Assembly: GCA_016198275.1 (NCBI GenBank)
Contig: JACQIX010000019.1
Span: 1-61,531, forward strand
Length of the DNA stretch: 61,531 nucleotides
Reading direction: 5' to 3'
Source of the DNA: Candidatus Daviesbacteria bacterium
GTDB lineage: Bacteria; Patescibacteriota; Microgenomatia; Daviesbacterales; UBA10151
In this document: piece by piece, positions 10,979 to 50,518 of the stretch
Numbering within the stretch: position 1 is the stretch's first letter
How the letters are laid out: every line of letters begins with the position of its first letter
Notes under the pieces: model-generated
Database searches by the model: none
Seen by the model: the letters and a program-made list of their open reading frames with translations, nothing else
What the model was told of the DNA's origin: nothing
Translations under genes and position numbers: made by a program

Positions 10979-12160
10979 TTAACGAGTTTGTTGTCTTTGT
11001 TTAATTAAATCTGCAGCAGAGGTGGCGCTTTGTCCTACTCCTTCTAATTGCCCAAAATTGGTGGAGCCAGAATTATCAGGTGGCGGGGTTGGTTGGGAGG
11101 GTGTGGTAATTGGAGCAGGAGGTTTTACTTGAGGCAAAGTTGCTTTTGCAGTCTCGGCAGGAAGTGAAGTAGTTGTTTTAGGCGGTTGGCCTATTCCCAA
11201 AATAAAATAAGCAGTGGCTCCAGCCACTATAATCAATAGTCCTATACCTAAGCCGATTACCCACTTAGGTATACCTTTATGCCCTTCAGCTGGAAGAGCC
11301 GGCGCTTCCTGAGTAGGTGTTTGTGGTGGAACCACTAATGTTTCCGGTGCGATGGGAGTTTCCGGCAGAGAATTATTGGTGATTAGATGTGATAGGTCAG
11401 TAGGAGTAGAGTCTGGGGTAGATGGCAGCGTAGCCGAGGTACTTGCGCCAACGTTCATCCAGCTTGGTTGGATTGCGGGTTGTTGAGGAGCGGCAGGGGT
11501 AGTTGCAGATCCGTCAATAGTTGGAGGCTGCGTTGGTGCACCCCACGGGTTATCCAGAGGTGAAAGGATAGGGGTAGGACTTGGTGGTGCGTAAGCGGTA
11601 GCTAATGGTTCGTTTTGAATAGGATAAGTTTGGGTTGGTTCTTCGGATATTGATAAAGGTGTTGTTTGGAGTGGGATTGAAGCTGACTGGGGCTGGGTTG
11701 ATGTAATGTTGGCGGGGGGGGGTTCAATAGGTAAAGTTGGGGTAGAATAATCTGGGGAAGATGCAAAATTAGAAGGGAATGTTTGCGGTTGAGGTTCGAC
11801 AGAAGGTTGAGGAATAGTTGTTAAAGGAGAAGCTGATGTAGTAGGCAAAGGAGTTGATGGCCAAGTTGGCGCGGCATTAGCTGGTGGGGAAAAAGAAGGA
11901 GGAGCTGGGGAAAGAGTAGGTGGTGTAGTTGGCGGTTGATAAGTTCCGCTTAAGGGGTTGGTTGTTTGACTTTGTTGATTAAAGTTTGGTAAGGGAGTTG
12001 ATGGCCAAGTTGACTCTGGATTGTCTGGTGCGGCAGTTGGAGACGGTGAAGGATAAGATTGGATAGGGTTGCTTGGTGCCTGAGGGAGGTTAGGGTTAGG
12101 ATCCGGCCCGGTATTAGAGGGTAGAGGGTTGGGATAGTTTGGGTTGTTTGAATTGTCCAT
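10979..12160 (-). CDS. Pro/Thr/Ser/Gln-rich low-complexity protein with one TM helix near the C-terminus
   Basis: 393 aa. About 300 residues are P/T/S/Q-rich, and TWPSTPLP occurs twice, matching the DNA repeat GGAGTTGATGGCCAAGTTG near 11.86 and 12.00 kb. A TM helix ([24 protein letters not shown]) and a ~70-aa tail follow. Confidence 0.55.
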
Positions 12161-12234: not shown

Positions 12235-14979
12235 ATGTTAGGGATATTAGGCAAGCTGCTTGATTCAAATGAGCGGGAAATCAATAAGCTTAAAAAAGTT
12301 GTTGAAAACATCAATGAGTTTGAAAAAAAAGTTTCCAAGCTGACTGACGTACAACTTAAAAATAAGTTTGCAGAATTTAAAAAAATTCATGAGTCAGGCG
12401 TTTCTTTGGATGATCTTTTGCCTGAAGTTTTTGCAACAGCGCGTGAGGCTGCTAAAAGAACTATCAAACAGCGCCATTTTGATGTGCAGATGATGGCGGC
12501 AATTGTTTTGCATCAGGGAAAAATTGCCGAGCAAAAAACAGGTGAGGGAAAAACATTATCAGCCACTCCGGCGCTTTTTTTAAATGCCATTGCCCAAAAA
12601 GGAGTTCATCTGGTCACTGTTAATGATTATTTGGCAATGAGAGATTGTGGTTGGATGGGACCAATTTTTAATGCTTTAGGGGCAACTTGCGCTACTATTA
12701 TTCATGATAAAGCTTTTATTTATGACCCAAAATATAAAAATATCGAACATGAAGATAAACGCTTGCGTAATTTACGCCCTATCAGCAGAAAAGAAGCTTA
12801 TCAGGCAGATATTACTTATGGAACTAATAATGAATTTGGCTTTGATTATTTACGGGATAATATGGTTTTTAGGCTGTCCGATCAGTCTCAAAGGGGTCAT
12901 TTTTTTGCCGTTGTTGATGAGGTAGATTCTATTTTAATTGATGAGGCAAGAACTCCTTTAATTATTTCCCAACCTGCGGATGAAGCTACGGAAAAGTATT
13001 ACCAGTTTTCCAAAATAATTGATTCCTTAAGCACTTCGGATTATGTAGTGGATGAAAAGCTTAAAACAGCTCATTTAACTGAAGGAGGGATTTTAAAAAT
13101 TGAAAAAATGTTAGGGGTTGATAATCTATATGAAAAAGATTTTTCTTCCTTGCATCATTTGGAAGAGGCTTTAAAAGCCAAAACCTTGTTTCATAAGGAT
13201 AAAGATTATGTGGTAAAAGAGGGAGAGGTAATTATTGTTGATGAGTTTACTGGCAGATTAATGTTGGGAAGAAGATACTCGGAAGGATTGCACCAGGCAA
13301 TTGAGGCCAAGGAGGGAATGCCTATTCAACAGGAGTCTCAGACATTGGCTACCATTTCTTTTCAAAATTACTTCAGGATGTATCAAAAACTTGCTGGCAT
13401 GACTGGAACTGCAGCCACAGAAGCAGAAGAATTTAACAAGATTTATAAATTAGAAGTAGTGGTAATACCCACTAATAACCTGATGATCCGTCAAGATCAT
13501 CCGGATACGATTTATAAAACTCAAGCTGCCAAATATACTGCTGTGGCAAATTTGGTAGAGGAATTACACAAAAAGGGCCAGCCGGTTTTGGTTGGAACTA
13601 CCGCTATTGACAAGAATGAATTTTTATCAGAACTGCTAAAAAGAAAAGGGATTTCTCATGCCCTGCTGAATGCTAAAAATCACGAAAAAGAAGCGGAGAT
13701 AATTGCCAAAGCCGGACAAAAAGGGTCAGTGACTGTGGCAACTAATATGGCAGGAAGAGGGGTGGACATAATTTTAGGCAAAGGGATAGCTAATTTAGGT
13801 GGGTTATACGTAATTGGAACTGAGAGGCATGAATCTAGAAGAATAGATAACCAGTTGCGGGGAAGAGGCGGGCGTCAGGGTGACCTCGGAGAAACCAGAT
13901 TTTTTGTTTCCTTGGAAGATGATTTAATGAGAATTTTTGGAGGCGAGCAAGTTTCTAAAGTGATGGATTTTCTGAAAATGCCCCCGGATATGCCAATTGA
14001 ACACGGTTTGGTTTCCAAAGCAATTGAGGGGGCACAGAAAAAAGTGGAAGGTCACAATTTTGATATCAGAAAACATACTGTTGAATATGATGATGTGATG
14101 AATCAGCAAAGGCAAATTATTTATGAAATCCGCAAAAAAGTATTGGAAGCTGCCAGTGAAGGAAAGAACCTATTTTTAAAAAAGGAAATATTGGAAAAAA
14201 TAGAGAGGGAGATTACAAATGTAGTAACAATTTATTCCGAAGAAGGCATGAACAGTAAAAAGATAGTGGAAGAATTTTCTGCTATTGTGCCTGTTGATGA
14301 AAATAGCCAAAAAGAAATTGCAAAACAAATTAGTTCTCTTTCCAACCCGACTGAGATTATTCGATTTCTAAATGAATTATCTGTCAATTTTTATAAGGAG
14401 AGAGAAAAACAAGTGGGTGAAGAGACTGCCCGTCAGATGGAGGTGTTTGTGTATCTAAATACCATTGATACTTTGTGGATTGAGCATTTGGATACTATGG
14501 ATGACCTTCGATCGGGGATAGGATTGCGGGGCTATGCTCAAAGAGATCCTTTGATTGAATACAAAAGGGAAGGATTTGATCTTTTTGAAAAATTGATGGT
14601 GGAGATTGACTATGAAATTGTCCGAAGAATTTACAAGGTAGCAGTTGCAGGACAAACTCCTCCGGAGTCAAGACCAGTAGTAATAGAAAAACACCCGGAA
14701 ATAGAAATAGGTGTGGAAACTGATCTCCCATTTGATGGCACAAAAGTAAGAATTGAAAGGAATGGAGTAGTATCCGAACAAGTTTATGGGGTACAAGGTC
14801 AACTAAATAATCCTCATGGAAAAATTGGCAGAAATGATCCATGCTATTGTGGTTCGGGTAAAAAGTATAAGAAGTGCCACCTAAATAGGGAACCGCAAGG
14901 AGGACAGGAGTTAGAAGCCTATAACTTATACTTCAATAATCAGGAAGAATGGCAAAGACGTTATGGTAAGAAAAGTTGA
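12235..14979 (+). CDS. secA: Preprotein translocase ATPase SecA, with an atypically long tail after the C-terminal zinc finger
   Basis: 914 aa. It has the DEAD-like motor motifs (MAAIVLHQGKIAEQKTGEGKT, DEVDSILIDEARTPLIIS, MAGRGVDI, GRGGRQGDLGE) and a C-terminal zinc motif CYCGSGKKYKKCH. Another 33 residues follow that motif. Confidence 0.95.
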   Translation: MLGILGKLLDSNEREINKLKKVVENINEFEKKVSKLTDVQLKNKFAEFKKIHESGVSLDDLLPEVFATAREAAKRTIKQRHFDVQMMAAIVLHQGKIAEQKTGEGKTLSATPALFLNAIAQKGVHLVTVNDYLAMRDCGWMGPIFNALGATCATIIHDKAFIYDPKYKNIEHEDKRLRNLRPISRKEAYQADITYGTNNEFGFDYLRDNMVFRLSDQSQRGHFFAVVDEVDSILIDEARTPLIISQPADEATEKYYQFSKIIDSLSTSDYVVDEKLKTAHLTEGGILKIEKMLGVDNLYEKDFSSLHHLEEALKAKTLFHKDKDYVVKEGEVIIVDEFTGRLMLGRRYSEGLHQAIEAKEGMPIQQESQTLATISFQNYFRMYQKLAGMTGTAATEAEEFNKIYKLEVVVIPTNNLMIRQDHPDTIYKTQAAKYTAVANLVEELHKKGQPVLVGTTAIDKNEFLSELLKRKGISHALLNAKNHEKEAEIIAKAGQKGSVTVATNMAGRGVDIILGKGIANLGGLYVIGTERHESRRIDNQLRGRGGRQGDLGETRFFVSLEDDLMRIFGGEQVSKVMDFLKMPPDMPIEHGLVSKAIEGAQKKVEGHNFDIRKHTVEYDDVMNQQRQIIYEIRKKVLEAASEGKNLFLKKEILEKIEREITNVVTIYSEEGMNSKKIVEEFSAIVPVDENSQKEIAKQISSLSNPTEIIRFLNELSVNFYKEREKQVGEETARQMEVFVYLNTIDTLWIEHLDTMDDLRSGIGLRGYAQRDPLIEYKREGFDLFEKLMVEIDYEIVRRIYKVAVAGQTPPESRPVVIEKHPEIEIGVETDLPFDGTKVRIERNGVVSEQVYGVQGQLNNPHGKIGRNDPCYCGSGKKYKKCHLNREPQGGQELEAYNLYFNNQEEWQRRYGKKS
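14878..14905. other. Putative attL (serine-integrase junction inside the secA 3' end)
   Basis: The sequence is CACCTAAATAGGGAACCGCAAGGAGGAC. The AACC core is shared with 50446-50449, and the half-site AAATAGG is mirrored by CCTATTT at the right junction. It lies 88 bp from the recombinase stop. Confidence 0.35.
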
Positions 14980-16548
14980 TTAGAAGCGAAAATCGATCTC
15001 TATTTTTCCATTACCCGTACGTATCTCTTTGATGATCATACGCAGAAAATGTTTTCTTTCTTCAAATTCTGCATTATCCCATAAGATATTGAAGTCTTCC
15101 AGGGATTTAGTGAATTTCTCCAGTTCCAGACGACGCTCGTTAATTTGTTGAAGCTTAATTTGATAATCATCGGCTACCACATGGTACTTGTTCTCTTCTT
15201 CCTCTAAGCGCTTTAAATTGCCTCCATAGACTTCTAACGAGTCGATCCCTGCTTCATAAGCTTCTTTGACCCGCTGTCTTCTTCTTTCAATGTCAGCTAG
15301 ATGTTTTGCAGCATATTTGTAGTCGTCTTCTAGGTTATCCGAGATAGCAATATTACGATCAAATATTAGTCTTTCTCTGGCGGTTGGATTATTAACCAGG
15401 TTTCGAATCTGGTTTAATACGAATTCTTCGAGTTTGGTGGCACTTATAACTCTTCTCTGACAGATACCGCTATATTTGTAACCCCCACAAAGGTACTCAT
15501 AGGTAGTTGTATTATTCCATCTAGGATTCTTTTTCTGCCTATTATGGTGACGAGTGAGATAAGTTACGCCAGATCCACAACGAATACATTTTGCGATTCC
15601 AGTTAACAAACCCCGACTCATCTTGGCCCTACCCTTTTGAGAATTACCTCTGACCTTTTTCTCTTTCTGAGCAAGAGCAAAAATAGCATCAGGAATAATT
15701 GGTTTATGCGTTCCAGGTTCGATAATACCTTTGTGTCCTCTTAACCTTCGTTGTTGATTCTTCTTGTATTCAGCGTGTCTCCAACCCCAAAGCACCTTGC
15801 CTGTATATGTTTGGTTTTGGAGCATATATTTAATCGCTTGTGCTCGCCAAAACTGACCTCGCGGGGGTTTTACTCCTTTTTCTGTCAGCGAGAACGCTAT
15901 GTTCAAAGCTCCTCTGCCCTGAATATATTCATCAAATATCCAGCGGACGATTTTTGCCTGCTCTTTATCTACTAGAACTTCCCTTTGTACTTTTCCTTTT
16001 TCATCTAGCCATCTGTGAATTTTGTAACCATATGGTACGTTGTTAGGGATCCTCCCCGATTTAGCCACAGCGACCTTACCCATCATCATTCTTCTGCGGA
16101 TTTTATTTCTTTCAATTTCAGACATCGTGTCACTATATCCTTCAACCATAATACCGAGGTCATCATCGGTGGGATCGTAGAGTTTTGGATCTTTTGGCTC
16201 TACGGGGGTATTAGTTGAGTAGGTCTGTATAAATAATTCCTTCAAAGCTTCCCTTGAGAGGGTGGCGCGTGCACGGTTTCTTGCAAAACGGTCAAAGTCA
16301 TAAACTAGCACCAAATCAAATATATGTTGCTCAGCGTCATCTAATAACTGTTGGAACGCTCTTCTTTCTTCAATGAGATGGCCACTTTCAGCATCAATGT
16401 AAGGTTCATGAACCAATTCCCAACCATGTTCTACGATGGTCTTTTTGCATTTGGCTATTTGATCAGGAAGAGAATATTTCCCTTCTGCTTGCTCTTTTGT
16501 GCTGACTCGGGCATATATTACCGCCCGGATATGAAATTTATTTTCCAT
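14980..16548 (-). CDS. Large serine recombinase (integrase)
   Basis: 522 aa. It has the resolvase catalytic domain AVIYARVSTKEQ (Ser nucleophile), a recombinase domain, a Cys-rich zinc ribbon (CIRCGSG...CGGYKYSGIC) and a long C-terminal coiled coil (EDDYKYAAKHLADIERRRQRVKEAYEAG...). Confidence 0.9.
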   Translation of the reverse strand: MENKFHIRAVIYARVSTKEQAEGKYSLPDQIAKCKKTIVEHGWELVHEPYIDAESGHLIEERRAFQQLLDDAEQHIFDLVLVYDFDRFARNRARATLSREALKELFIQTYSTNTPVEPKDPKLYDPTDDDLGIMVEGYSDTMSEIERNKIRRRMMMGKVAVAKSGRIPNNVPYGYKIHRWLDEKGKVQREVLVDKEQAKIVRWIFDEYIQGRGALNIAFSLTEKGVKPPRGQFWRAQAIKYMLQNQTYTGKVLWGWRHAEYKKNQQRRLRGHKGIIEPGTHKPIIPDAIFALAQKEKKVRGNSQKGRAKMSRGLLTGIAKCIRCGSGVTYLTRHHNRQKKNPRWNNTTTYEYLCGGYKYSGICQRRVISATKLEEFVLNQIRNLVNNPTARERLIFDRNIAISDNLEDDYKYAAKHLADIERRRQRVKEAYEAGIDSLEVYGGNLKRLEEEENKYHVVADDYQIKLQQINERRLELEKFTKSLEDFNILWDNAEFEERKHFLRMIIKEIRTGNGKIEIDFRF

Positions 16549-16571: not shown

Positions 16572-16793
16572 TTAACTCAATCCTTCTTTAAGGATTATCG
16601 AAATGTCTTCTTTTCTATATCGACGATCTTTTCTGTTTCCCACACGTATGGCTTTAAGTTTTCCTTGGTTATCCCATTGTCTCAATGTCCATGGGCTAAG
16701 ATTTAGTATTTGGGAAACTTGATTCAAAGTAAGCAATGGGGGCCAAGTTGATGAATTACTCGGAACAAACTCTATTGTTTTCTTCTTTGTCAT
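16572..16793 (-). CDS. Excisionase/MerR-type helix-turn-helix protein (candidate recombination directionality factor or regulator)
   Basis: 73 aa containing LTLNQVSQILNLSPWTLRQWDNQGKLKAIRVGNRKDRRY, an HTH of the excisionase family. It sits immediately upstream of the recombinase on the same strand. Confidence 0.6.
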   Translation of the reverse strand: MTKKKTIEFVPSNSSTWPPLLTLNQVSQILNLSPWTLRQWDNQGKLKAIRVGNRKDRRYRKEDISIILKEGLS

Positions 16794-16833: not shown

Positions 16834-17664
16834 ATGGAAGAAAATGCAGTAATTTCAGATGCGCTTCGTTTAGCAAAAGCCATTCTTGGCTCACTGCTTC
16901 CCAAAGAACGGTGGGCAATTATAAATATTGCAAAAGATAAAAGAGAAAGTTTTGTTTTAGAGGGATACCCTTCAATACCTACATCATTTGGTTACACCTA
17001 TGATAAAACCCCACTATTATTGGAAAAATATATGGTAATTGAGGATAAAGTAGGTGGTTGGTGGTTTATGGGCATATCTGATATTGATTCCTATTGGGCG
17101 AGATATATTCGACAAAATCTAACCACTGTCAATGATATTGAATGGACAGCTCATGAAAAGGGCTACTTAGAGAAAACTAAACTTGTCGAATATTATTATG
17201 ACGATAAAGGTTCGACTGGTCCAAGAATGCATGGACAGGCCGCGGTGCTAATTAACAAACGTGCATTAGAAAAGTTTATAAATAAGTTTAGCAAGAATCG
17301 GGACATGCCTCTCCACCGGAGAGATCATGTATACGAGAATGGCGAATTACGCTTAAAATTACAAGATGGTTCTTACTGTACGCTTGATTTATCTAAAGCA
17401 GACGAATACAGACCAGTTTTTGAGAGTTTCTATTATCTATACAGGGATACTAACCGATATCTCTTTGACAGAGCTGAGCTTTTGGCAAAGTATAAGGAAT
17501 TAACGAGAAAGGAAGTTGATTGGAGATTTTTTATCAAGCAAAAGTCATCGATTGTCGGAAAAATGATTAACACCAAACCTTGTTTGAAGAATCGGATTAT
17601 TTGGGAATTCGATAAAGAAGAGAAAAAATACAGATTCGGAATTTTACCTCTGTCTGATAAATAA
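16834..17664 (+). CDS. Hypothetical protein (element backbone)
   Basis: 276-aa ORF divergent from the xis-int pair. No recognisable motif. Confidence 0.45.
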   Translation: MEENAVISDALRLAKAILGSLLPKERWAIINIAKDKRESFVLEGYPSIPTSFGYTYDKTPLLLEKYMVIEDKVGGWWFMGISDIDSYWARYIRQNLTTVNDIEWTAHEKGYLEKTKLVEYYYDDKGSTGPRMHGQAAVLINKRALEKFINKFSKNRDMPLHRRDHVYENGELRLKLQDGSYCTLDLSKADEYRPVFESFYYLYRDTNRYLFDRAELLAKYKELTRKEVDWRFFIKQKSSIVGKMINTKPCLKNRIIWEFDKEEKKYRFGILPLSDK

Positions 17665-17679
17665 ATCAGACAATCAGAC
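17652..17679 (+). repeat. Three copies of ATCAGAC (one inverted, two tandem) at the end of the 276-aa gene
   Basis: GTCTGAT (17652-17658) is the reverse complement of ATCAGAC (17665-17671), giving a 7-bp stem with a 6-nt loop across the TAA stop. AATCAGAC is then repeated in tandem (17664-17671 and 17672-17679). Confidence 0.4.
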
Positions 17680-17752
17680 AAGTCATTTCTCTCGGATTAG
17701 CCTCATTTTCTCCTATTGACAAATAAATGTCTTCCTGGGTTTGTGGTAGTTG

Positions 17753-17944
17753 ATGAATACTCAACTACCAAAACAGGTTTTTAAAGATCAAGAATTGTCT
17801 TCGAAGATTGCTGTAACCGTGGCCGATGCGGTGCTGCTTCTTTATAAGTCGGTCAAAGAGCGAAAACTTCGAGAGTTAATAAAAAACATGGAAGATGGAG
17901 GATCCATTAAATATGGAAAATTTACAAGAAACATCACTCTATAA
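17753..17944 (+). CDS. Hypothetical small protein
   Basis: 63 aa from the ATG at 17753 (the track start at 17750 is TTG). It overlaps the next ORF by about 30-50 nt. No motif. Confidence 0.3.
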   Translation: MNTQLPKQVFKDQELSSKIAVTVADAVLLLYKSVKERKLRELIKNMEDGGSIKYGKFTRNITL

Positions 17945-18167
17945 AAACCACGATTTTTACCTTTCGGCGATTTGTTTAGCCGCAGGACTGAGTTTGCTGC
18001 GGCTTGAACGAGGCCAAGGTAAGTTCGTCGTCTTTGTCTTCTCTGACCCCCAGCAGAAAGCCCAACAGATAATTTCTGACCATTGGAGTCACAAACTAAA
18101 AGTTCCCAGCAGAAGCATTATTGAAGCAATAAATGAATTAAAAACCAGATTGCATTCTGGAGTTTGA
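17895..18167 (+). CDS. Small phage-associated protein resembling the DUF5659 family
   Basis: 90 aa. The pattern DFYLSAICLAAGLSLLRLERGQGKFVVFVFSDPQQKAQQIISDHW...AINELKTRL matches my recollection of DUF5659 (a-a-L-x-G, then F-x-F-x-D, then a C-terminal l-K). The start may instead be the Met at 17913. Confidence 0.4.
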   Translation: MEDPLNMENLQETSLYKNHDFYLSAICLAAGLSLLRLERGQGKFVVFVFSDPQQKAQQIISDHWSHKLKVPSRSIIEAINELKTRLHSGV

Positions 18168-18397
18168 AGGAGGCTTTTATGAGCAATAAGAGATTTAAAA
18201 CAATTAAGCTTGGCGAAATTCAACAAAGAATTATCAAACATGCAATGGAATATTTACTTATAAATGCTGATAAAGAGTTGGTGTGTGAGTATTGCCAAAA
18301 AAGACTTATGCATCTGATAGATGGGTTTACAAAACGTACGGAAGGAATAACGCTAACAGAAAAAATAAACTTATCACGAACCAAGGGTAATGAATGA
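18164..18397 (+). CDS. Hypothetical small protein
   Basis: 77 aa. The start overlaps the previous stop (GTTTGAAGG / ATGA-type coupling). No motif. Confidence 0.35.
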   Translation: MKEAFMSNKRFKTIKLGEIQQRIIKHAMEYLLINADKELVCEYCQKRLMHLIDGFTKRTEGITLTEKINLSRTKGNE

Positions 18398-18435
18398 TAT
18401 GGCAATTGTGCTTAGAGTCGGGGAGCTAAAAGTAT

Positions 18436-21246
18436 ATGAACAACTTAAATTTTAAACAAATCGTAGAAGAAATAAAAGGTCGGGTCGATATAGTCGATGT
18501 GGTTAGTGAGTTCGTCGAGTTAAACCGAAACAATAAGGCACTATGCCCGTTTCATGATGAAAGACACCCGAGTTTTAGCGTTAACCCTAAGGGTCAATAT
18601 TATTATTGTTTTTCCTGCGGGGTTGGTGGAGATGTGATCGACTTTCTTAAGCGATTTAACACACAAAGTTTTTGGGAGGTGTTAAAGGAACTTGGTCGAA
18701 AAACTGGAGTTTCCATTGAATCGATATCGGATGAAGACAAAAAGCATATCGAAGACGTCTACACGATTGAAGAAATTCTTACTAAATCTGCTCATTATTA
18801 TCATTTGCGACTAACCAAAGAAGTCAAAAATTATCTAAATGAAAAACGGGCAATTAATGATGAGATGATTGAAAAGTTCCAAATTGGTTTTGCCGATGGG
18901 ACTCTGAGTAATTATTTATTAAATGAGTGCAAATACCCTCTGGATATATGTTTGAAATCAGGCGTTTTAAGGGGAGAACCCGCGAAAGACTATTTTTTTA
19001 ATCGTATCATGCTTCCAAATATCAGAAATGGCAGAGTAGTTTATTTGACAGGTAGGAGTTTAGACGACTCCGAACCGAAGTACATTCATATAGCTGGAGA
19101 ACAGCGATATTTATATAACGAGGAGGCATTAATAGAAGAAAATGTAATAGTTGTTGAGGGTTTCTTTGATTGTGTCTCGTTAGTACAGGCAGGGTTTAAC
19201 GCTGTAGCTTTGATGTCAACGAACCTAAAAGATGAATTCGTTCGTAAGTTTGATAAATGTAAAACAGTGTATATCTGTCTTGATGGCGATGAGGCTGGAA
19301 AGGTAGCTACCGAAAAACTTGGAGCAGCCCTAGTTCAAAAGACAAGAATCGTTCAGTTACCAGACAATTTAGACCCAGATGATTTCTTAAAGTCTTATTC
19401 TAGGGAAGATTTTGACGCACTGCTAAATTCCGCTCTTGATTTCATTCGTTACAAATTAAGCCAAATATCAACCGATACCGATAAAACCGAATTACCAAAG
19501 AAACTTGAGCCAATTCTTCTATTGCTTAACAGGTTAGATAGGGCTAACTCAGAGGCATTTTTATCTCACGTCATCAAAGATTATTTCAACCTGAAAAATA
19601 AAGACATTGATGCTTACAGGCAAACGATGAAAGAATTAGCCAAGAGAGAAAAAGAGAAAATTTCTACTTCGGGATTTGATCTTCCGGTTAAATATTCAGC
19701 CCATCTAAATGGTTTGGTTGATCTCGTTTTAGATAATGGCGAAACTGCATTTTTGATCAAAGAACTAGATAAATTGAAGATACGAGCTGAGATTGAGGAA
19801 GGATGGTGGTTGCTGTTGCCGCCTCCCAGAGAGCAGGTTCCTTGGTTATTGCCTAAGGGTGAAAACGTTATCAAGATATACGAACAAGAGGAATCTTTAG
19901 CACAAAAAACAGTCGATGGGCAACTTTATGATGATATTGTTAGCTATCTGAAGAACATATCAGAGTTACCCGGAGAGGCTTATTATGAATTACTTGCTGC
20001 TTGGGTTCTCCATACATATTGCATGGAAACACCCCAATATACGCCTATTATTTGTCTTTTTGCAGTTCCAGAAAGAGGGAAGAGCCGAACCGGAAAGGGA
20101 CTGATATATCTTGTATATCATGGCATCCATGTTGAAAGTTTGCGGGATCCATATCTGGTTCGAGTAGCAAATGATTTAGATGCTACTCTATTTTTTGACG
20201 TCAAAGATGTTTGGGAGAAGGCGGAAAAAGAGAAAAGTGAAGATATTTTGCTTCACAGGTTTGAAAAAGGTGCTAGAGTACCACGGGTTAATTATCCTGA
20301 GCGAGGACCGCATCAGGACATCGTTTACTATAAAATTTTTGGGCCTACGATTATCGCTACCAACGAGAGTGTCCACCAAATCCTTGAAACACGAGCGATT
20401 CAGATTAATATGCCCGAAACTAGTAAGCGGTTTGATAATTCCGTTACACCCGAACTAGCTATAGAGTTAAAAGAGCGTCTTATTGTTTTTCGAGCTCGTC
20501 ATTTTGAGGAACAATTTCCTGAAATTCCAAAACCTGCAAATGGAAGACTTGGAGATATACTACGACCCCTACTTCAAATCGTTCAGCTCGTTAAACCAGA
20601 ACGGGAAGAAGCATTTTTGCGGCTCATTAAGGAATTAGAAAAGGAGCGATTAATTGAGAAAGCGGATTCTCTAGAAGCCCAGATATTGCTTGTTATTATC
20701 GGACTGAAGGATCGAGTGGAGAGGGGTATGTTACCTGTCAAGGATATTACCGACAAATTAAATGAAAACAAGCCCGATGACCATAAATTTTCTTATCATC
20801 GAGTTGGAAGAAGACTTTCTGCTTTGGGTTTCCGTAAGGGAAAAACCGGAGATGGAAGCTCTGCGATTATATGGGACGACGATTTAACGGAACGAATGAA
20901 AGCAAAGTATGGTTTGAACGAATCATCAGAAATACCAGAAACACCAGAATCTTCGGATTTAAATACAGATAATACTGATGTTTCTGGTGATACTGGTGTT
21001 TCTCCAAAGATTAACAAGAATGGAATAAACCTAAATCACATGGGAGATAGTGAGTTAATGGACCAAGAAGACGCATTGAGGAATGCCCTAATATTTTTTG
21101 AAAAGAATACTCCCGAATATGAAGTCAAATATAAGGAATGGTTCTCTTATAGAGAAGAAGGTGTTCGACGTAAGCTTTTTGATACTTTTGTTCCAGCAAG
21201 CCAGCAAGAGCTGGGATTTAACGATGGAGGTGGTTCTAGTGCCTAA
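18436..21246 (+). CDS. DnaG-type primase (CHC2 zinc finger + Toprim) fused to a C-terminal P-loop NTPase-like domain
   Basis: 936 aa. It has a zinc finger (CPFHDERHPSFSVNPKGQYYYCFSCGVGGDVIDF), Toprim motifs (VVEGFFDCVS and CLDGDEAGKVA), a downstream Walker-A-like AVPERGKS, and a Walker-B-like LFFDVKD. Confidence 0.85.
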   Translation: MNNLNFKQIVEEIKGRVDIVDVVSEFVELNRNNKALCPFHDERHPSFSVNPKGQYYYCFSCGVGGDVIDFLKRFNTQSFWEVLKELGRKTGVSIESISDEDKKHIEDVYTIEEILTKSAHYYHLRLTKEVKNYLNEKRAINDEMIEKFQIGFADGTLSNYLLNECKYPLDICLKSGVLRGEPAKDYFFNRIMLPNIRNGRVVYLTGRSLDDSEPKYIHIAGEQRYLYNEEALIEENVIVVEGFFDCVSLVQAGFNAVALMSTNLKDEFVRKFDKCKTVYICLDGDEAGKVATEKLGAALVQKTRIVQLPDNLDPDDFLKSYSREDFDALLNSALDFIRYKLSQISTDTDKTELPKKLEPILLLLNRLDRANSEAFLSHVIKDYFNLKNKDIDAYRQTMKELAKREKEKISTSGFDLPVKYSAHLNGLVDLVLDNGETAFLIKELDKLKIRAEIEEGWWLLLPPPREQVPWLLPKGENVIKIYEQEESLAQKTVDGQLYDDIVSYLKNISELPGEAYYELLAAWVLHTYCMETPQYTPIICLFAVPERGKSRTGKGLIYLVYHGIHVESLRDPYLVRVANDLDATLFFDVKDVWEKAEKEKSEDILLHRFEKGARVPRVNYPERGPHQDIVYYKIFGPTIIATNESVHQILETRAIQINMPETSKRFDNSVTPELAIELKERLIVFRARHFEEQFPEIPKPANGRLGDILRPLLQIVQLVKPEREEAFLRLIKELEKERLIEKADSLEAQILLVIIGLKDRVERGMLPVKDITDKLNENKPDDHKFSYHRVGRRLSALGFRKGKTGDGSSAIIWDDDLTERMKAKYGLNESSEIPETPESSDLNTDNTDVSGDTGVSPKINKNGINLNHMGDSELMDQEDALRNALIFFEKNTPEYEVKYKEWFSYREEGVRRKLFDTFVPASQQELGFNDGGGSSA

Positions 21247-21472
21247 TTTTAGAGAAAAAGTACAAGACAAAGTTGCCTTGATCTTAATAGATTTTTTGCA
21301 TGATGTTAAAGCTGTTAATTGGACAGCAAGAAATGAAATAGATATTGATGAAAATAATTACGGAGAGCTGGCGAAAATGTACGCAAAGCAAATAGAGAGA
21401 TTTATCGTAAGGTCATTGACAAGCAAGAGTATTGATAAATCTACAAAGGAATCCGAAAAATATGAACGCTGA
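21224..21472 (+). CDS. Hypothetical small protein
   Basis: 82 aa from the ATG at 21224. The track ORF starts at 21098 but would overlap the primase by 149 nt. No motif. Confidence 0.3.
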   Translation: MEVVLVPNFREKVQDKVALILIDFLHDVKAVNWTARNEIDIDENNYGELAKMYAKQIERFIVRSLTSKSIDKSTKESEKYER

Positions 21473-21554
21473 CAGTAAGGTAAGATACGTCAGATATACC
21501 AGAAAGGCCTGTCGTTCAAGAATTTCTAATGAAAGAGCGAGGTGAATTACGAGC

Positions 21555-22040
21555 GTGAATAACCAACAAAATCAACAAAACCAACAGAATGTTAATTCTT
21601 ACGAAGCTTTAGATAAGCTAGGCAAAGAAATTGTAGTCTTAAAACTATCGGGGCTTTCATATCAAAGTATAGTGGAATATCTAGAAAAGATAGGAGAGAA
21701 GCGAGAGAACCAGACAGTTAGAGAATGGTTTATTAATGGTGGTAAGTATTATGAAGCTTATGAGTTTATGAAGGCTAAAAGGCATGAAGAAATCGAACCA
21801 GAATTTAAGGCAATCGAGGGGCAAATCAAAGAAGGAGCAATAGATGCAATCGGGGTTGTCAGGGATCAAGTTAAAAGGGGCAATCTGAAAGCAGCAATGT
21901 ATCTTCTTAAATTGGCTGGTTTTGAAGTGGAGCAAATCAAAAATATCAGTGACGAGTCTGAAGAAATGAAGCTTTTGAAGGAAATCATAGAAAGAAATGA
22001 ACAGCGATCTAGCACAACTCACCAAATTATTCAAAATTAA
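21555..22040 (+). CDS. Candidate terminase small subunit / HTH DNA-binding protein
   Basis: 161 aa with a GTG start. It has an N/Q-rich N-terminus and then an HTH-like segment (LKLSGLSYQSIVEYLEKIG). Its position immediately upstream of TerL, overlapping it, is the main argument. Confidence 0.4.
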   Translation: MNNQQNQQNQQNVNSYEALDKLGKEIVVLKLSGLSYQSIVEYLEKIGEKRENQTVREWFINGGKYYEAYEFMKAKRHEEIEPEFKAIEGQIKEGAIDAIGVVRDQVKRGNLKAAMYLLKLAGFEVEQIKNISDESEEMKLLKEIIERNEQRSSTTHQIIQN

Positions 22041-23352
22041 TGGTCAAGGTTTGGTTTTAACCCCAACCCAACAGAAAATTTTTGACCTGATAGTTACTAA
22101 CGCTCATCCAAGAAATCAAATTATTGCTCCTACCCAATATGGAAAGTCACTCACCGTAGCTTTATCTGTGTTATGTAGAAGTGTGGGTAAGGGTGAGAAG
22201 TTTATTATTTTAGCTCCTTCTGAGAAAAAAGCAGGGATTACCATGAATTACATTATTGACCACTGTTTTGATTCCAATCTTTTTCTCTCCCAACTAGAAC
22301 TTGAGCAATCATTTACTCTGGATAGACTTAGAAGAGAACGTTCCAGGAATCATCTAACCTTTAAAAATGGCGGTGGGATAATGACATTAACACTAGATGC
22401 CAGAAATTCTAAGAGATCTCTTGAAGCAGCAATGGGTTTTGGAGGTAATAGGTTAATTTTAGACGAAAGCAGTCTAATTGATGATCCCTTGTATGCAACA
22501 GTTAAAAGGATGTTAGGTGGTCATCCTTACAGCAATACCTTTCTTCTTGAGATTGGCAATCCTTTTTACAGAAATCATTTTTACCGAACTTGGAACACTG
22601 AACGATATAACAAATTATTTATTGACTATAAAGTTGGACTTGCGGAAGGTAGATATTCTGAGGAATTTATCGAAGAGATGAGAGATGAGGCATTTTTCAG
22701 TGTTTTTTATGAGTGTAAATTTCCAGAGGAAGATATAGTAGATGAATATGGTTATCGAGTCCTTCTTACCAATGAGGAATTAAATAATGCTTTTGTAAAC
22801 GAGCATCTACCTATGGAGAGAGAGCTATATTTAGGAGCTGATATAGCAGGAGGCGGTGATTACAATGTCTTTGTAATGCGGACAAAACAGTTTGCTTGGA
22901 TTGAAAGTAAAAATAGGTCTAATGACACAATGACAAATGTTTCTGAAATTCAAAGGATTTTAGAACAATATCCTAATCTTAAACCCCAAAATGTTTTTGT
23001 AGATGATATAGGGGTGGGAAGAGGGGTATCTGACAGATTAAGAGAATTAAATCTAGCAGTAAATGGGGTATCAGCTGGAGAAAAAGCTCTAAATGCTGCT
23101 AAACATAAGAATATTAAAGCTGAATGTTATTGGTTGGCTTCTCAATGGATTAAACAGGGAGGAAAACTTTTAAGAGATGATAATTTCAGACAACTCACTT
23201 GGATAAAGTACAAAGTTAATAGTGAGAGGGTTTTACAAATTGAGCCTAAAGAAGGGTTGAAACAAAGAACTGGTAGATCACCTGATTTTGCTGATGCTTT
23301 TATGCTGACTTTTGTTACCCCAAAACTAGAGCCTAAAATTTGGTGGATATGA
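21997..23352 (+). CDS. terL: Terminase large subunit
   Basis: 451 aa. It has Walker A APTQYGKS and Walker B LILDESSLI. The C-terminal RNaseH-like nuclease carries acidic motifs GADIAGGGDYNVFV, VDDIGVGRGVSD and SPDFADAFML. Confidence 0.85.
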   Translation: MNSDLAQLTKLFKINGQGLVLTPTQQKIFDLIVTNAHPRNQIIAPTQYGKSLTVALSVLCRSVGKGEKFIILAPSEKKAGITMNYIIDHCFDSNLFLSQLELEQSFTLDRLRRERSRNHLTFKNGGGIMTLTLDARNSKRSLEAAMGFGGNRLILDESSLIDDPLYATVKRMLGGHPYSNTFLLEIGNPFYRNHFYRTWNTERYNKLFIDYKVGLAEGRYSEEFIEEMRDEAFFSVFYECKFPEEDIVDEYGYRVLLTNEELNNAFVNEHLPMERELYLGADIAGGGDYNVFVMRTKQFAWIESKNRSNDTMTNVSEIQRILEQYPNLKPQNVFVDDIGVGRGVSDRLRELNLAVNGVSAGEKALNAAKHKNIKAECYWLASQWIKQGGKLLRDDNFRQLTWIKYKVNSERVLQIEPKEGLKQRTGRSPDFADAFMLTFVTPKLEPKIWWI

Positions 23353-30821: not shown

Positions 30822-32408
30822 GTGAATAAAACGTACTTAATAATATTGCTTGTAGTTGTAGTTCTCAGTGGAGTTTTTCTTTTTTCAAGACAACAATCAA
30901 ACACACCTCAAAAAGGAGAATTCTCTACTGCAGTTAATCAGGCAAGTAGCCCGAAACAACAAGAAACTGTGAATCTTAAAGATGGTGATACATATAACTT
31001 AACCGCCAGTGTAGTTAAAAAATCCATCAATGGCCAAGAGATGAAAATGCTTGCCTACAACGGCTCAATCCCTGGTCCCCTCATCAAAGTTCCTCAAGGA
31101 GCACAAATCACTCTCAAGTTTACAAACAATGCTGATGTTGACTCAACCATCCATTCGCATGGAGTCAGAGTCGATAACAAATTTGACGGGGTTCCTGATA
31201 TAACTCAGGATCCGGTAAAGCCGGGCCAATCATTCACCTATACTCTTAAATTCCCTGATGCCGGTGTGTATTGGTATCACCCACATATTCGAGAAGATTA
31301 TGCTCAAGAATTGGGATTATACGGAAATTTTTTGGTCACACCGAGCACTCCTGATTATTGGGCTGAGGTCGATCGCGAAGAAGCACTTTTTTTGGATGAC
31401 ATCCTTATTGAAAATGGGCAAATCGCCAAATTTGACAAGTCAGTTGTGGATCACACACTTATGGGGCGGTTTGGCAACACAATGTTGGTTAACGGAGATG
31501 ATAAATATAAGTTATCGGTCAAGCAAGGAGAGAGAGTGCGATTTTATGTTACAAACGCTGCTAATACAAGAACATTTAATTTTGCTATTCCTAATACTCG
31601 TATGAAGCTGGTTGGCAGTGACAACGGAAAATATGAGCAAGAGGAATGGATTGGTTCGGTTACCATTGGTCCATCAGAGCGGCAGATCATAGAAATTTGG
31701 TTTGACAAAAATGGACAGTATCAGATTGTCAACCAAACTTCTGATAAAACATACACTTTAGGAACTATTGCAGTACAGCAAAATCCCGTTACTACCTCAT
31801 ATTTTTTAGTCCCGCGTGTAAATCAGGATTACATTGATTCTCTTGCCAGCTTGCGGCCACAATTTGATAAACCGGTAGATAAAAGCCTAAAGCTTACATT
31901 ACAAATGGGACCATCAAATACTAGTACAAATAACAACAGCTCAATGGGTGGGCACATGATGGGTAATGATCAAATGATGGAAAATACTCAAATGACTATG
32001 GGAGATATCCAAAAAATAGAATGGGAAGACGATATGGGGATGATGAATGCCCAGTCAACCAAAGATTCACTTAAGTGGAAGCTGGTTGATATAGCAACCA
32101 ATAAAGAGAATATGGACATCGGCTGGCAGTTCAAAAAAGGTGATGTCGTTAAGATGAAGATTTTCAACGACGATAAATCCATGCATCCCATGCAACACCC
32201 GATCCATATTCATGGGCAAAGGTTTTTAGTGCTTTCGACCAATGGTGTTAAAAACAATAACCTTGTCTGGAAAGATACTACTCTCATTCAAACCGGAGAT
32301 ACAGTAGAACTCCTGGTACAAATGGATAATCCAGGAGACTGGGTAATTCACTGCCACATTCCGGAGCACATGGAAGCCGGAATGATGAGCGAATTCAAGG
32401 TAATTTAA
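30822..32408 (+). CDS. Multicopper oxidase (CueO/CopA-like) with a Met-rich insert
   Basis: 528 aa with a signal/TM anchor. The copper ligand motifs are HSHG, WYHPH, HPIHIHG and HCHIPEHMEAGMM. The Met-rich segment is MGGHMMGNDQMMENTQMTMG...DMGMM. Confidence 0.9.
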   Translation: MNKTYLIILLVVVVLSGVFLFSRQQSNTPQKGEFSTAVNQASSPKQQETVNLKDGDTYNLTASVVKKSINGQEMKMLAYNGSIPGPLIKVPQGAQITLKFTNNADVDSTIHSHGVRVDNKFDGVPDITQDPVKPGQSFTYTLKFPDAGVYWYHPHIREDYAQELGLYGNFLVTPSTPDYWAEVDREEALFLDDILIENGQIAKFDKSVVDHTLMGRFGNTMLVNGDDKYKLSVKQGERVRFYVTNAANTRTFNFAIPNTRMKLVGSDNGKYEQEEWIGSVTIGPSERQIIEIWFDKNGQYQIVNQTSDKTYTLGTIAVQQNPVTTSYFLVPRVNQDYIDSLASLRPQFDKPVDKSLKLTLQMGPSNTSTNNNSSMGGHMMGNDQMMENTQMTMGDIQKIEWEDDMGMMNAQSTKDSLKWKLVDIATNKENMDIGWQFKKGDVVKMKIFNDDKSMHPMQHPIHIHGQRFLVLSTNGVKNNNLVWKDTTLIQTGDTVELLVQMDNPGDWVIHCHIPEHMEAGMMSEFKVI

Positions 32409-40467: not shown

Positions 40468-40983
40468 ATGCAGGAACCAAAAATCAGAACAATCTTACTT
40501 GTAAGTATTTTTGCGATCGCTTTTGCGTTTGTTGAGGCTTCAGTGGTTGTGTATCTACGACATCTATTGGGTGCCAGTTTTAACCCGCCGCAAGTCAGCC
40601 GGGAGCAAGTCTTATTATTAGTCCCAGGAATAGCTTTTCTTGACCCAAAAACAACTCTGGCCGTAATGAAGGATTCACAGATTTTGAAGGTTGAGCAATT
40701 TCGGGAGGCAGCGACCATAATTATGCTTGCCAGTGTTGCATTTTTAGCTGCCAAGGAAGCTCGCGAGAAATTAGCTTACTTTCTTCTCGCGTTTGGTGTT
40801 TGGGATATCTTTTATTACGTCTTTTTGCGGCTGGTTATTGGTTGGCCGAAGTCTCTTTTTGATTCAGATATTTTTTTTCTGTTACCAGTTCCATGGGTAG
40901 GACCGGTGATTACACCTTTAATTATCTCAAGCGTTTTAATCTTTGCAGCTTTATTGCTTTTAAAAAGAAAAGTTGAATTATGA
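40468..40983 (+). CDS. Polytopic membrane protein of unknown function, first gene of the ATPase operon
   Basis: 171 aa from the ATG at 40468. The track start at 40444 lies inside the predicted operator. It has about 5 TM helices and an ATGA overlap with the ATPase gene. Confidence 0.4.
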   Translation: MQEPKIRTILLVSIFAIAFAFVEASVVVYLRHLLGASFNPPQVSREQVLLLVPGIAFLDPKTTLAVMKDSQILKVEQFREAATIIMLASVAFLAAKEAREKLAYFLLAFGVWDIFYYVFLRLVIGWPKSLFDSDIFFLLPVPWVGPVITPLIISSVLIFAALLLLKRKVEL

Positions 40984-43226
40984 AAAATCAAGTCGCTGAA
41001 AAGAGTGTTTATACCTGTCCGATGCATCCAGAAGTGCAGATGGACAAGCCTGGCTCATGCCCAAAATGCGGGATGAAACTAGTGGAAAGCAAAATGAAGA
41101 TGAACCATGAGGGAATGGATCATGGTGCCATGGGTCACGGTGATCATGTAATGAAACCAGTGTCTCAAATGTCATGGTGGGAAAAATTCAAAATGAGCAT
41201 GACCATGGCTATGGGTATGGAGCATGGAGGCCTGGCAGGACGTGAGATGGCCAAACTTATGGAAGAGGATATTCGCAATAAGTTTTTTGTGGCGTTGATT
41301 CTGACCTTGCCGATTATCGCGTATTCACCTCTAGGAACAAACATCTTGGGGTTAAGACTCCCTGAGCCGATTCCTGCCAGCTGGACAATGTTTTTGTTGG
41401 CTACTCCTGTTTATTTTTACTCCGGCTGGATATTTCTCTACTCCACATACAAAGCATTAAAAGCAAAAACGCTTAACATGGCTGTGCTCATTGCTGTTGG
41501 TATCACCGCAGCATATGCATTTAGTGTGGTTCTAACGCTTCTCGGTAGCAAAGAATCTTTTTATGAAGCCGCTGCAATGCTAACCACATTCGTTCTCTTT
41601 GGTCATTGGATGGAGATGAAAAGTAGGCGTGGGACTACTGATGCGCTTCAAGCACTTTTTGACCTTGTCCCCCCTCAAGCGCGAGTAATACGAAATGGCA
41701 AAGAAGAGTTGATTCCTACAGCGCAAGTGCGATTGGGTGATGTTATTGTCTTAAAACCTGGAGATAAGGTGCCCGTTGACGGTGAAATAATAGAAGGTGA
41801 AACTGCCATTGATGAATCTTTAGTGACTGGTGAGTCTTTACCTGTTGTTAAAACAGTTGGTGATAAGGTGATCGGCGGCTCAATCAATACTTCGGGGTCA
41901 GTCCAATTTAAAGCAACTAAAATTGGTGAAGATACCGCTCTTGCTCAAATAGTCAAAATGGTTGAAACTGCCCAGAACTCCAAAGCTCCGGGGCAGAAAA
42001 TCGCTGATCGCTTTGCCAGATATTTAGTAGTTGTCGCTGTTGGCGGTGGACTTTTGACCTTCGCCGTCTGGTTTTTCATCCTCGGCCAGCCGATTCTCTT
42101 TGCACTTACTTTTGCCATCTCTACTGTCGTTATTGCCTGCCCTGATGCACTTGGACTGGCTACACCAACAGCTGTAGCAGTAGGTACTGGTTTGGGCGCA
42201 AAACATAATATTTTGATTAAAGATGCTCCTACTCTTGAGCAAGTTTCAAAAATACAATCTGTTGTTCTGGACAAAACAGGAACCCTCACTGAGGGTAAAC
42301 CTAAAATTACCGATGTGGTTGCTTCAAAAGGATTCACCGAGAACGATATTATTACACTTGATGCTGCAGCCGAAGCAAGATCTTCTCATCCTTTGAGTCT
42401 GGCGGTTTTAGAAGAAGCCAAACAAAGAAAACTTAGCATTCCTACTCAGGTGGAAAAATTTAAGAATCTAGCAGGTCATGGGGTTGAAGCAGTTGTTGAT
42501 GGTAAGCATGTGCTTGTCGGAACCGTAAAACTCATGAACGACTCGAGGGTTGATATTTCACCACTTCAAAAAGATATTGACAGACTACTCTCTGAAGGCA
42601 AAACCATCATGGTATTGGCTTTAGATAACAAAATTGCGGGCGTTGCAGCTGCTTCTGATCCGGTGAAGGAAAACGCTAAGCAAGCGATTACTCGTATGAA
42701 AGAGCTTGGGTTAGAGGTTGCGATGATTACCGGAGACAACAAAAAAACCGCTGAAGCCATTGGGAAACAGTTAAACATTGATAGAATCTTTTCCGAAGTA
42801 CTTCCGGGAGACAAAGCCTCCTACGTCAAGAAACTGCAACAGGAAGGCAAATTTACTGCCATGGTTGGTGATGGAGTCAATGATGCTCCGGCACTGGCTC
42901 AAGCTGATATCGGTATTGCCATTGGGGCCGGAACCGACGTAGCTATTGAAACAGCCAAAGTCGTACTGATGAAATCCGATCCTGCGGACGTTCTCAGAGC
43001 CATCAAGCTCTCTAAAGCGACTGTTCGTAAAATGAAACAGAATCTCTTCTGGGCTTCGATTTACAACCTATTGGCCATACCTGTTGCAGCCGGTGTTTTA
43101 TATCCCGCCTACAACATTTCATTACGTCCTGAAATCTCGGCACTTCTGATGAGCATTTCTTCCATTATTGTCGCAACTAATGCAGTCTTACTTAACCGAG
43201 CAGAAAAGGATCTTATAACCGTATGA
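40980..43226 (+). CDS. Copper-type P1B heavy-metal-translocating ATPase with an HMBD zinc-ribbon + His/Met-rich N-terminus and a non-canonical CPD transmembrane motif
   Basis: 748 aa. It has TGES (VTGESLPV), DKTGTLT, GDGVNDAP, TM7 YNLLAIP and TM8 MSISS. TM6 reads IACPDALGLATP (codons tgc cct gat). The N-terminus is YTCPMHPEVQMDKPGSCPKCGM followed by HEGMDHGAMGHGDHVM. There is no ferredoxin-like CxxC HMA domain. Confidence 0.92.
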   Translation: MKNQVAEKSVYTCPMHPEVQMDKPGSCPKCGMKLVESKMKMNHEGMDHGAMGHGDHVMKPVSQMSWWEKFKMSMTMAMGMEHGGLAGREMAKLMEEDIRNKFFVALILTLPIIAYSPLGTNILGLRLPEPIPASWTMFLLATPVYFYSGWIFLYSTYKALKAKTLNMAVLIAVGITAAYAFSVVLTLLGSKESFYEAAAMLTTFVLFGHWMEMKSRRGTTDALQALFDLVPPQARVIRNGKEELIPTAQVRLGDVIVLKPGDKVPVDGEIIEGETAIDESLVTGESLPVVKTVGDKVIGGSINTSGSVQFKATKIGEDTALAQIVKMVETAQNSKAPGQKIADRFARYLVVVAVGGGLLTFAVWFFILGQPILFALTFAISTVVIACPDALGLATPTAVAVGTGLGAKHNILIKDAPTLEQVSKIQSVVLDKTGTLTEGKPKITDVVASKGFTENDIITLDAAAEARSSHPLSLAVLEEAKQRKLSIPTQVEKFKNLAGHGVEAVVDGKHVLVGTVKLMNDSRVDISPLQKDIDRLLSEGKTIMVLALDNKIAGVAAASDPVKENAKQAITRMKELGLEVAMITGDNKKTAEAIGKQLNIDRIFSEVLPGDKASYVKKLQQEGKFTAMVGDGVNDAPALAQADIGIAIGAGTDVAIETAKVVLMKSDPADVLRAIKLSKATVRKMKQNLFWASIYNLLAIPVAAGVLYPAYNISLRPEISALLMSISSIIVATNAVLLNRAEKDLITV

Positions 43227-50460: not shown

Positions 50461-50518
50461 CATTTCAAACGTTGTCATTACCCAAATTAAGAAATTTGGG
50501 TCCCACTATCCCAATTGA

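Follow-up and report, generated by a model that had tools for sequence, protein, structure and literature searches.

Large serine recombinases act through a phosphoserine intermediate with 2-nt 3′ overhangs, work without a host factor, and depend on a directionality factor for excision. In staphylococci, the staphylococcal cassette chromosome mec (SCCmec) integrates at the 3′ end of rlmH (orfX) by means of such enzymes, CcrAB. In Escherichia coli, phage 21 and e14 integrate in icd, and the prophage provides an alternative 3′ end for the gene. The Bxb1 serine integrase uses a 48-bp attP (the attachment site of the element) and a 38-bp attB (that of the host), in which interrupted inverted repeats surround a central dinucleotide (PMC1470463). 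In Mycobacterium smegmatis its attB lies within groEL1, at the 3′ end of the gene, and integration is reported to impair GroEL1-dependent biofilm formation (PMC1470463 and references therein). Here we describe a 35,598-bp island at the 3′ end of secA in a 61,531-nt stretch of Candidatus Daviesbacteria DNA (contig JACQIX010000019.1; the whole stretch is hereafter called the window). The island, which carries its own serine recombinase, has very probably been inserted at the dinucleotide AA in the last codons of the sole secA gene of this uncultivated, small-genome groundwater bacterium of the Candidate Phyla Radiation (CPR, Microgenomates group), with an attP of 50 bp and with displacement of the native gene end to the right junction, attR.

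The system resembles Bxb1 in its large serine recombinase, its short att sites with inverted repeats around a non-palindromic dinucleotide, the otherwise dissimilar attP and attB, and the choice of target, a conserved housekeeping gene that is entered at its 3′ end and acquires an altered C-terminus. It differs in that the target consists of the secA codons for the SEC-C zinc motif in CPR bacteria, the core is AA instead of the GT of Bxb1, and the element is not a complete phage. Moreover, this element re-encodes the Cys-His ligands and adds a conserved 32-residue peptide, whereas Bxb1 integration is reported to impair a trait. With SCCmec it shares the organization of a cargo island that lacks phage-particle and conjugation genes, uses serine recombination and keeps the last codons of a conserved gene open. 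However, one recombinase gene is present here in place of the ccrA/ccrB pair, the target is different, and a long new peptide tail takes the place of a near-identical replacement of the last codons. The general likeness to phage 21 and e14 is that a substitute 3′ end is carried by the element and the function of an important host gene is preserved. Phage 21 and e14 rely on tyrosine integrases with a long identical core and on a near-synonymous replacement, in contrast to the serine recombinase, the 2-nt core and the exchange of YPN for a 32-residue tail found here. Relative to the class of elements that restore the 3′ end of their target, insertion in the last codons with the frame kept open is observed, but the restored C-terminus is not near-native.

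New features are the SEC-C zinc-motif target in the secA gene of CPR bacteria, the fact that two zinc ligands are rebuilt, and the conserved appended peptide; the mechanism is of the known serine-integrase type. In the literature searched (full text), we found no report of a secA-targeting integrase, and the single mention of secA, in a paper on phage WO, was unrelated. The att system is resolved here to the base pair (50-bp attP, secA attB, AA core). Genetic tools are almost lacking for Microgenomates-group CPR bacteria, many of which possess a natural landing site for the integrase, and the enzyme is thus a lead of practical use. The locus is also a testable case of a mobile element that rewrites the C-terminus of the Sec motor.

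Junctions and empty site

The secA open reading frame (ORF) of the window (12,235–14,979, plus strand) encodes 914 residues. Its set of SecA Pfam domains is complete, and the SEC-C zinc motif is located at residues 866–883. The protein ends with ...CYCGSGKKYKKCH followed by LNREPQGGQELEAYNLYFNNQEEWQRRYGKKS, and 32 residues (33 by the count of an initial annotation made from the sequence) separate the zinc-motif Cys-His from the stop. As that annotation had pointed out, the TGA stop (14,977–14,979) directly abuts the stop of the convergent recombinase gene (TTA on the plus strand, 14,980–14,982). A search of the genome (0.79 Mb in 41 contigs) gave one secA match only. Among 40 related genomes searched, the nearest SecA proteins are 82–83% identical to that of the window (best identity, 83%) as far as residue ~883, where the homology ends. 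The 3′ ends read from ~30 relatives, comprising almost every member of the family, encode Cys-His-YPN-stop, and other families of the class end in CH-YPQLG, YPKYG and similar sequences. SecA thus normally ends shortly past its zinc motif, as had been assumed, and the LNREP... ending is absent from all 3′ ends that were read.

The crossover is the dinucleotide AA at 14,869–14,870, which is equivalent to 50,467–50,468. The element therefore spans 14,871–50,468 or, equivalently, 14,869–50,466. The left junction, attL (14,845–14,894, plus strand), comprises a host half-site up to 14,868, AA, and the element half-site GAAGTGCCACCT with the arm AAATAGGGAACC (14,871–14,894). attR (50,443–50,490, plus strand) comprises the arm GGTAACCTATTT (50,443–50,454), GAACAGCATTTC, AA and the displaced native secA end ACGTTGTCATTACCCAAATTAA, so that the right junction reads GGTAACCTATTTGAACAGCATTTC-AA-ACGTTGTCATTACCCAAATTAA. 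The displaced end (50,467–50,490, plus strand) is AAA CGT TGT CAT TAC CCA AAT TAA, encoding K R C H Y P N stop, and it matches the family-wide CH-YPN-stop ending.

The empty site was observed in a public groundwater run (X22). A 58-nt contig in this run consists of window positions 14,841–14,868 (ATGCTATTGTGGTTCGGGTAAAAAGTAT) joined to 50,467–50,496 (AAACGTTGTCATTACCCAAATTAAGAAATT), and it was found independently by placing left-junction and right-junction contigs. The empty site reads ATGCTATTGTGGTTCGGGTAAAAAGTAT-AA-ACGTTGTCATTACCCAAATTAAGAAATT; its junction can be written compactly as AAAAAGTATAAACGTTGTCATTACCC, and attB is ...GGTAAAAAGTAT-AA-ACGTTGTCATTACCC... The left-flank contig common to both forms stops exactly at 14,870, where the empty-site contig branches off, and the right part of the latter starts exactly at 50,467. 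In a different run (SRR12113428), the Logan contig L031 likewise begins exactly at 50,467, the expected place for an assembly-graph branch. The depth of the empty form is 5.1, that of the occupied form is 12.5 at the left and 12.4 at the right junction, and the flanks have depths of 17.9 and 17.7. Empty and occupied depths thus add up to the flank depth, and ~29% of the sites in X22 are empty. Nine other runs with this organism (X1–X7, X21 and X23) contained the occupied form and no empty site. Across all ten runs, with depths reaching ~41, the occupied form is thus either the sole or the predominant one. Runs X8–X11 contained only other, related organisms, in which the loose ends are again ...CAC TAT CCT AAT TAA.

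The stretch common to attL, attR and attB is exactly 2 nt (AA), and an ambiguity as short as this is characteristic of serine recombinases, which cross over within 2 nt. attB is otherwise unlike attP: at the exchange point they are identical only in the non-palindromic AA, and the attL/attR pairs of two related elements (in genomes G042 and G043) behave in the same manner.

A contig that matches 14,848–14,880 and then diverges was considered as an empty site and rejected, because it belongs to the SEC-C gene of another organism. In runs X2, X3, X5, X21 and X23, this SEC-C-motif gene matches the 33 nt of 14,848–14,880 with one mismatch and diverges from secA exactly past the His codon. The target DNA is thus conserved across genes and species, and SEC-C genes of other proteins could be secondary landing sites.

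attP and related elements

Joining the two ends of the element gives a 50-bp attP, GGTAACCTATTT-GAACAGCATTTC-AA-GAAGTGCCACCT-AAATAGGGAACC, in which the central AA is flanked on each side by a 12-nt spacer and, outside it, a 12-nt inverted arm (core junction, ...AGCATTTC-AA-GAAGTGCCACC...). The dyad has 16 of 24 possible matches; all of 20,000 random 50-mers drawn from the window scored lower. The AAATAGG...CCTATTT symmetry corresponds to the two outer attP arms, both of which are element DNA set 35.6 kb apart by integration. An intact attP is present on a 9.3-kb metagenome contig (L062, Ga0209520_10003323), where GGTACCCTATTTGAATAGCATTTC-AA-GAAGTGTCATTTGAATAGGGTACC stands beside an integrase gene with no adjoining secA and with a dyad of 22/30 matches. 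This contig is a related element in the unintegrated attP state. Small ORFs flank the site on the 6 kb of the contig that were read, and the DNA could be a circular or episomal form. A scan of viral_contigs with the attP pattern gave no match.

Homologues of the integrase with 77–86% identity occur in three public CPR genomes from GTDB, which are metagenome-assembled genomes (MAGs) of a Woesebacteria, a Microgenomates and a Patescibacteria member, and homologues with 70–86% identity occur on 13 metagenome contigs. Some metagenome contigs duplicate one another; counted as distinct cases, eleven related elements have the integrase gene tail-to-tail with secA at the same junction, in diverse CPR hosts. 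In the eleven attL sites, host sequence encoding ..GSGKK(Y/W) is followed by AA and then by GAARTGYCAYnTRAATAGGKAACC. The host codons and the upstream secA sequence differ among the eleven, whereas the element side is shared, which identifies TAAATAGGGAACC as element sequence and not host sequence. Because the target is the DNA of the conserved SEC-C zinc motif, one integrase family can enter secA genes that are only ~50–70% identical across Microgenomates-group CPR bacteria.

The right ends agree with this assignment. On the same contig as its attL, the element of G042 ends in GGTACCCTATATGCTAGCATTTC-AA-AAAGTGCTGCTATCCCAAATTTGGTTGA, which encodes ...HF-K-KCCYPKFG-stop, and that of G043 reads GGTAGCCTATTTAACTAGCATTTC-AA-AAAATGTCACTGGCCACTGGCAGCGTAA, ending in its own KCHWPLAA-stop. 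Both attR sites are laid out as in the window, with GGTAnCCTATnT..AGCATTTC-AA preceding the host's own SecA end. The agreement of the three attR sites indicates that the element ends with ...GCATTTC and that the host SecA end comes after AA. When the DNA of G041–G043 was searched with the right end of the window, only weak matches were obtained, one of which (contig C30 of G043) is a true attR. In G041 (Woesebacteria GW2011_GWB1_38_8b), attL is present on contig C1, and a right end of the form GGTAnCCTAT...GCATTTC was not found within 23 kb or elsewhere in the genome; possible reasons are decay of this copy or loss of its attR. The length of the G042 element is exactly 13,000 bp. The parts common to the relatives are the integrase, a 73-residue excisionase-like helix-turn-helix (HTH) protein and a few small ORFs, and the tblastx conservation with the related elements reaches only to ~18.2 kb of the window.

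Alternative accounts of the junctions

The initial annotation had placed the crossover in the tetranucleotide AACC, which is present at both 14,891–14,894 and 50,446–50,449. It had predicted CACCTAAATAGGGAACCTATTTGAACAG as attB and GGCTATATGGTAACCGCAAGGAGGAC as attP, an ancestral SecA ending in KCHLNREPI-stop, and a foreign tail consisting of the last 27 residues. Its general idea holds: the long SecA tail is element DNA, and the element carries a large serine recombinase; the ancestral attB and stop can also be recovered, although they are not those predicted. Joining the flanks across AACC does produce the AAATAGG/CCTATTT dyad together with a short ORF, and this dyad is real and non-random, but its halves are the attP outer arms and not those of attB. 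AACC occurs 228 times on the plus strand of the window, and 8 different tetramers are common to the two 60-nt end regions, so that the AACC repeat is at chance level. The actual core, AA, precedes the left AACC by 22 nt and follows the right AACC by 21 nt. Since homology with the relatives stops at residue ~883, the break must be at or before the His codon and not 14 nt further on, at AACC. The empty site in X22 differs from the predicted sequence, the native end is KRCHYPN-stop, the relatives end in YPN-stop and never in LNREPI, and the foreign part amounts to 35 residues (K880–S914). In addition, TAAATAGGGAACC, which had been taken as host sequence, accompanies the element when it enters unrelated secA genes, and it also occurs in the unintegrated attP of L062, which differs from the predicted attP. 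A crossover in AACC is therefore almost certainly incorrect. The same low probability applies to a crossover in CCAC (14,877–14,880 and 50,503–50,506), by which a second HYPN-stop at 50,504–50,518 would be the displaced native end. This sequence, CAC TAT CCC AAT TGA, abuts the stop of the downstream gene, and the join would give KCHYPN-stop. However, the empty-site contig joins 14,868/14,870 straight to 50,467, upstream of this second copy, the element ends at ...GCATTTC-AA according to the G042 and G043 attR sites and the L062 attP, and the attP dyad is centred on AA. The CCAC crossover was dropped on the basis of the G042 attR, the L062 attP and the X22 contig. Least probable of all is a long tail native to the SecA of this lineage, with the recombinase merely a neighbour and no integration at secA. 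Nine of the ten runs with the organism, which show the tailed form only, would fit such an arrangement, but the empty-site contig with its additive depths, the displaced KRCHYPN-stop at attR, and the same tail on SecA bodies that are only 52–55% identical do not.

Several observations nevertheless weigh against integration by site-specific recombination at AA as described above. The dyad symmetry of attB (8/24) is not significant. The evidence for the empty site consists of one short, low-depth Logan unitig and one contig end, which are assembled sequences and not raw reads. No contig with a circular attP junction was present in any run examined, and the empty site in X22 may accordingly stem from cells that never carried the element and not from excision.

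Structure of the fused SecA

The native SecA, as reconstructed across AA, has 885 residues and ends in ...GSGKKYKRCHYPN-stop. The crossover falls in codon 879, and the ORF stays open to 914 residues. The host-encoded part of secA (12,235–14,870, plus strand), delimited by the ORF and homology, covers residues 1–879, including the first two bases of the Lys879 codon, which is rebuilt over the crossover. The element-encoded part (14,871–14,979, plus strand) supplies Lys880, the last two zinc ligands (Cys881 and His882), the tail (Leu883–Ser914) and the TGA stop; the Cys-His pair is thus included in the foreign part. Because Cys881 and His882 are supplied by the element, the zinc motif with its four ligands stays complete. 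The restored C-terminus is unlike the native one, as RCHYPN-stop is replaced by KCH and 32 new residues.

By the mechanism that we propose, the recombinase of the island would join the 50-bp attP to attB within the DNA for the SEC-C zinc motif, and strand exchange would take place at the non-palindromic AA of the Lys879 codon. The element half-site would re-encode Lys-Cys-His, by which all four zinc ligands of SecA would be kept, and the frame would continue through the 32 element-encoded residues to the stop abutting that of the integrase gene. The native R-C-H-Y-P-N-stop would thereby be moved 35.6 kb away, to attR. We infer that the fused SecA must be functional, because it is the product of the only secA in the genome and because the occupied form is dominant in the sampled populations.

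The linker before the SecA zinc motif varies among strains. A co-occurring strain (depth 5–8; runs X21–X23) has 220 other nucleotides in place of 136 nt of the linker, within window positions 14,660–14,797.

The appended tail

Tail-bearing SecA proteins form only 7 clusters among 5.8 billion proteins. The tail is 64–97% identical to those of other tailed SecAs, whereas the SecA bodies are 52–69% identical. This higher conservation of the tail than of the body indicates that the tail moves with the element. We estimated the ratio of nonsynonymous to synonymous polymorphism (pN/pS) over 19 conserved codons (EAYNLYxNNxEEWQRRYGK) after the LNREP region in nine elements. The value was 0.30 in the secA frame, as compared with 0.9–1.5 in three other frames; one antisense frame has a pN/pS similar to that of the secA frame but contains stops. 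The substitutions in the secA frame include synonymous changes between the Arg codons CGT and AGA. Only the secA frame is open in all nine sequences over this stretch; the sense +1 frame is interrupted in one of the nine, and each antisense frame has stops in most sequences. On the other half of attP, three of four elements have a TAG codon two codons ahead of the core, so that the tail peptide would be translatable only as a SecA fusion. A model of the last 60 residues of SecA predicted two helices in the tail with moderate confidence (predicted local distance difference test, pLDDT, ~70–81).

These data suggest that selection probably acts on the tail peptide as part of SecA. The opposing possibility, that the tail is a by-product of translation running into element DNA, with EAYNLY..EW.RRYG conserved by a DNA or RNA constraint (the 3′ region of the integrase gene, a terminator or a directionality-factor site), seems rather unlikely to us, although some features would fit it well. 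The attP arm fixes the five residues with which the tail begins (LNREP), and a Pfam search with the tail alone gave no match. Six related elements (L034, L052, L055, L056, L060 and L061) have a truncated tail or an in-frame stop, leaving LNR, LNREP, LNREPQG and similar remnants, which argues that the long tail is not required; two of the six are still conserved downstream. The estimate of selection itself should be read with caution because it comprises 19 codons in 9 sequences with non-independent pairwise comparisons. On the other hand, the by-product account does not explain why coding-like substitution is seen only in the secA frame, why this frame alone is open throughout, why the TAG in the attP form limits the peptide to the SecA fusion, or why helices are predicted. 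In L034 and L052, an in-frame TAA or TAG is located at tail codon 9–11, and the downstream EAY(N/S)LY..EWQRK is in frame and conserved; these stops are either recent nonsense mutations or a sign of a second constraint on the region.

A further step, which we regard as doubtful and put forward tentatively, is that the tail peptide (30–33 residues, LNREP..EAYNLY..EW.RRYGKK) is an element-encoded modification of the sole SecA motor kept by selection for altered SecA behaviour, possibly with silencing of the integrase coupled to integration via antisense readthrough. If so, the tail may alter the contacts of the zinc domain with the ribosome or membrane, or the export of envelope and redox proteins encoded by the island, and the family would be one that edits an essential translocase by site-specific recombination. 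SecB (PF02556) was not found in this 84%-complete genome, which makes a SecB-binding role for the tail unlikely. In intact-tailed elements, 0–4 nt separate the new secA stop from the integrase stop, and no terminator-like site is present between them. Transcription of secA would run antisense into the integrase gene, with possible silencing of the integrase once the element is integrated.

Gene content of the element

The integrase gene (14,980–16,548, minus strand) encodes a large serine recombinase of 522 residues (phrog_95, 3.9e-95) with Resolvase, Recombinase and Zn_ribbon_recom domains in Pfam. The N-terminal resolvase domain (PF00239, 1.2e-24) covers residues 9–166 and contains the catalytic Ser16 in YARVSTKEQ, which is invariant among 4 homologues. 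The C-terminal part contains PF07508 (5.9e-21) and the zinc ribbon PF13408 (3e-10). All sequence-level defining features of large serine recombinases that are testable here are present. Just upstream is the gene for the HTH_17/MerR-type excisionase-like protein of 73 residues (16,572–16,793, minus strand; PF12728; phrog_66, excisionase and transcriptional regulator), and this pairing is kept in G041–G043 and L062. Judged by its family and position, the protein is a candidate directionality factor or regulator, and it is the only accessory candidate.

A phage-derived backbone (16,834–23,352, plus strand), defined by Pfam and PHROGs, follows. It contains conserved ORFs at 16,834–17,664 and 17,895–18,167 (the latter DUF5659-like), a DnaG-type primase gene (18,436–21,246; phrog_6444, 2.7e-75) and a large-terminase-like gene (TerL; 21,997–23,352; phrog_2, 7.3e-29), all on the plus strand. 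The region from 23,445 to 46,266 (plus strand) holds cargo that Pfam matches assign to copper/redox envelope stress, including a BlaI/CopY-like repressor with an M56 protease, thioredoxins, DsbD-like proteins, an OmpR-type regulator with a histidine kinase, AhpC/TSA, a multicopper oxidase (30,822–32,408) and a heavy-metal P-type ATPase (40,980–43,226), the last two also on the plus strand. The element moves a copper/redox-stress cassette; its presence is polymorphic in one groundwater sample at least. At its right edge is an ORF of 1354 residues (46,370–50,434, plus strand) with only a weak TPR match in Pfam. Capsid, portal, tail and lysis genes were not found by Pfam searches of ~35 element ORFs and PHROGs searches of the 7 backbone ORFs, in which the integrase, the excisionase-like protein, the primase and TerL were the sole phage-type matches; nor were relaxase, coupling-protein or type IV secretion domains found by Pfam in the scanned element ORFs. 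The element is best called a phage-derived integrative island and is possibly satellite-like.

Flanking sequences

To the right of attR, a second, diverged HYPN-stop remnant (50,504–50,518, plus strand) lies in host DNA, 13 nt past the native stop. The window contains two HYPN-stop strings (50,476–50,490 and 50,504–50,518), and the CAYTAYCCNAAYTRR pattern has three matches in the genome, two of which are at this site. The third, on contig C31, was considered as a SEC-C gene and rejected as a chance match. The remnant is within a unitig (50,467–50,567) that is reached from the branch point of both the empty and the occupied forms. The sequence of 50,491–50,518, which includes GGG TCC CAC TAT CCC AAT TGA, agrees with the first secA end at ~18 of 28 nt and resembles an old tandem duplication or a scar that an earlier event left at the site. 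The right flank continues with a convergent host gene for a PMT_2-family glycosyltransferase (50,519–51,958, minus strand), assigned by Pfam. Directly upstream of secA, an ORF of 393 residues (10,979–12,160, minus strand) without a Pfam match is very rich in Pro, Thr and Ser and, as read from its sequence, has one apparent membrane segment near the C-terminus.

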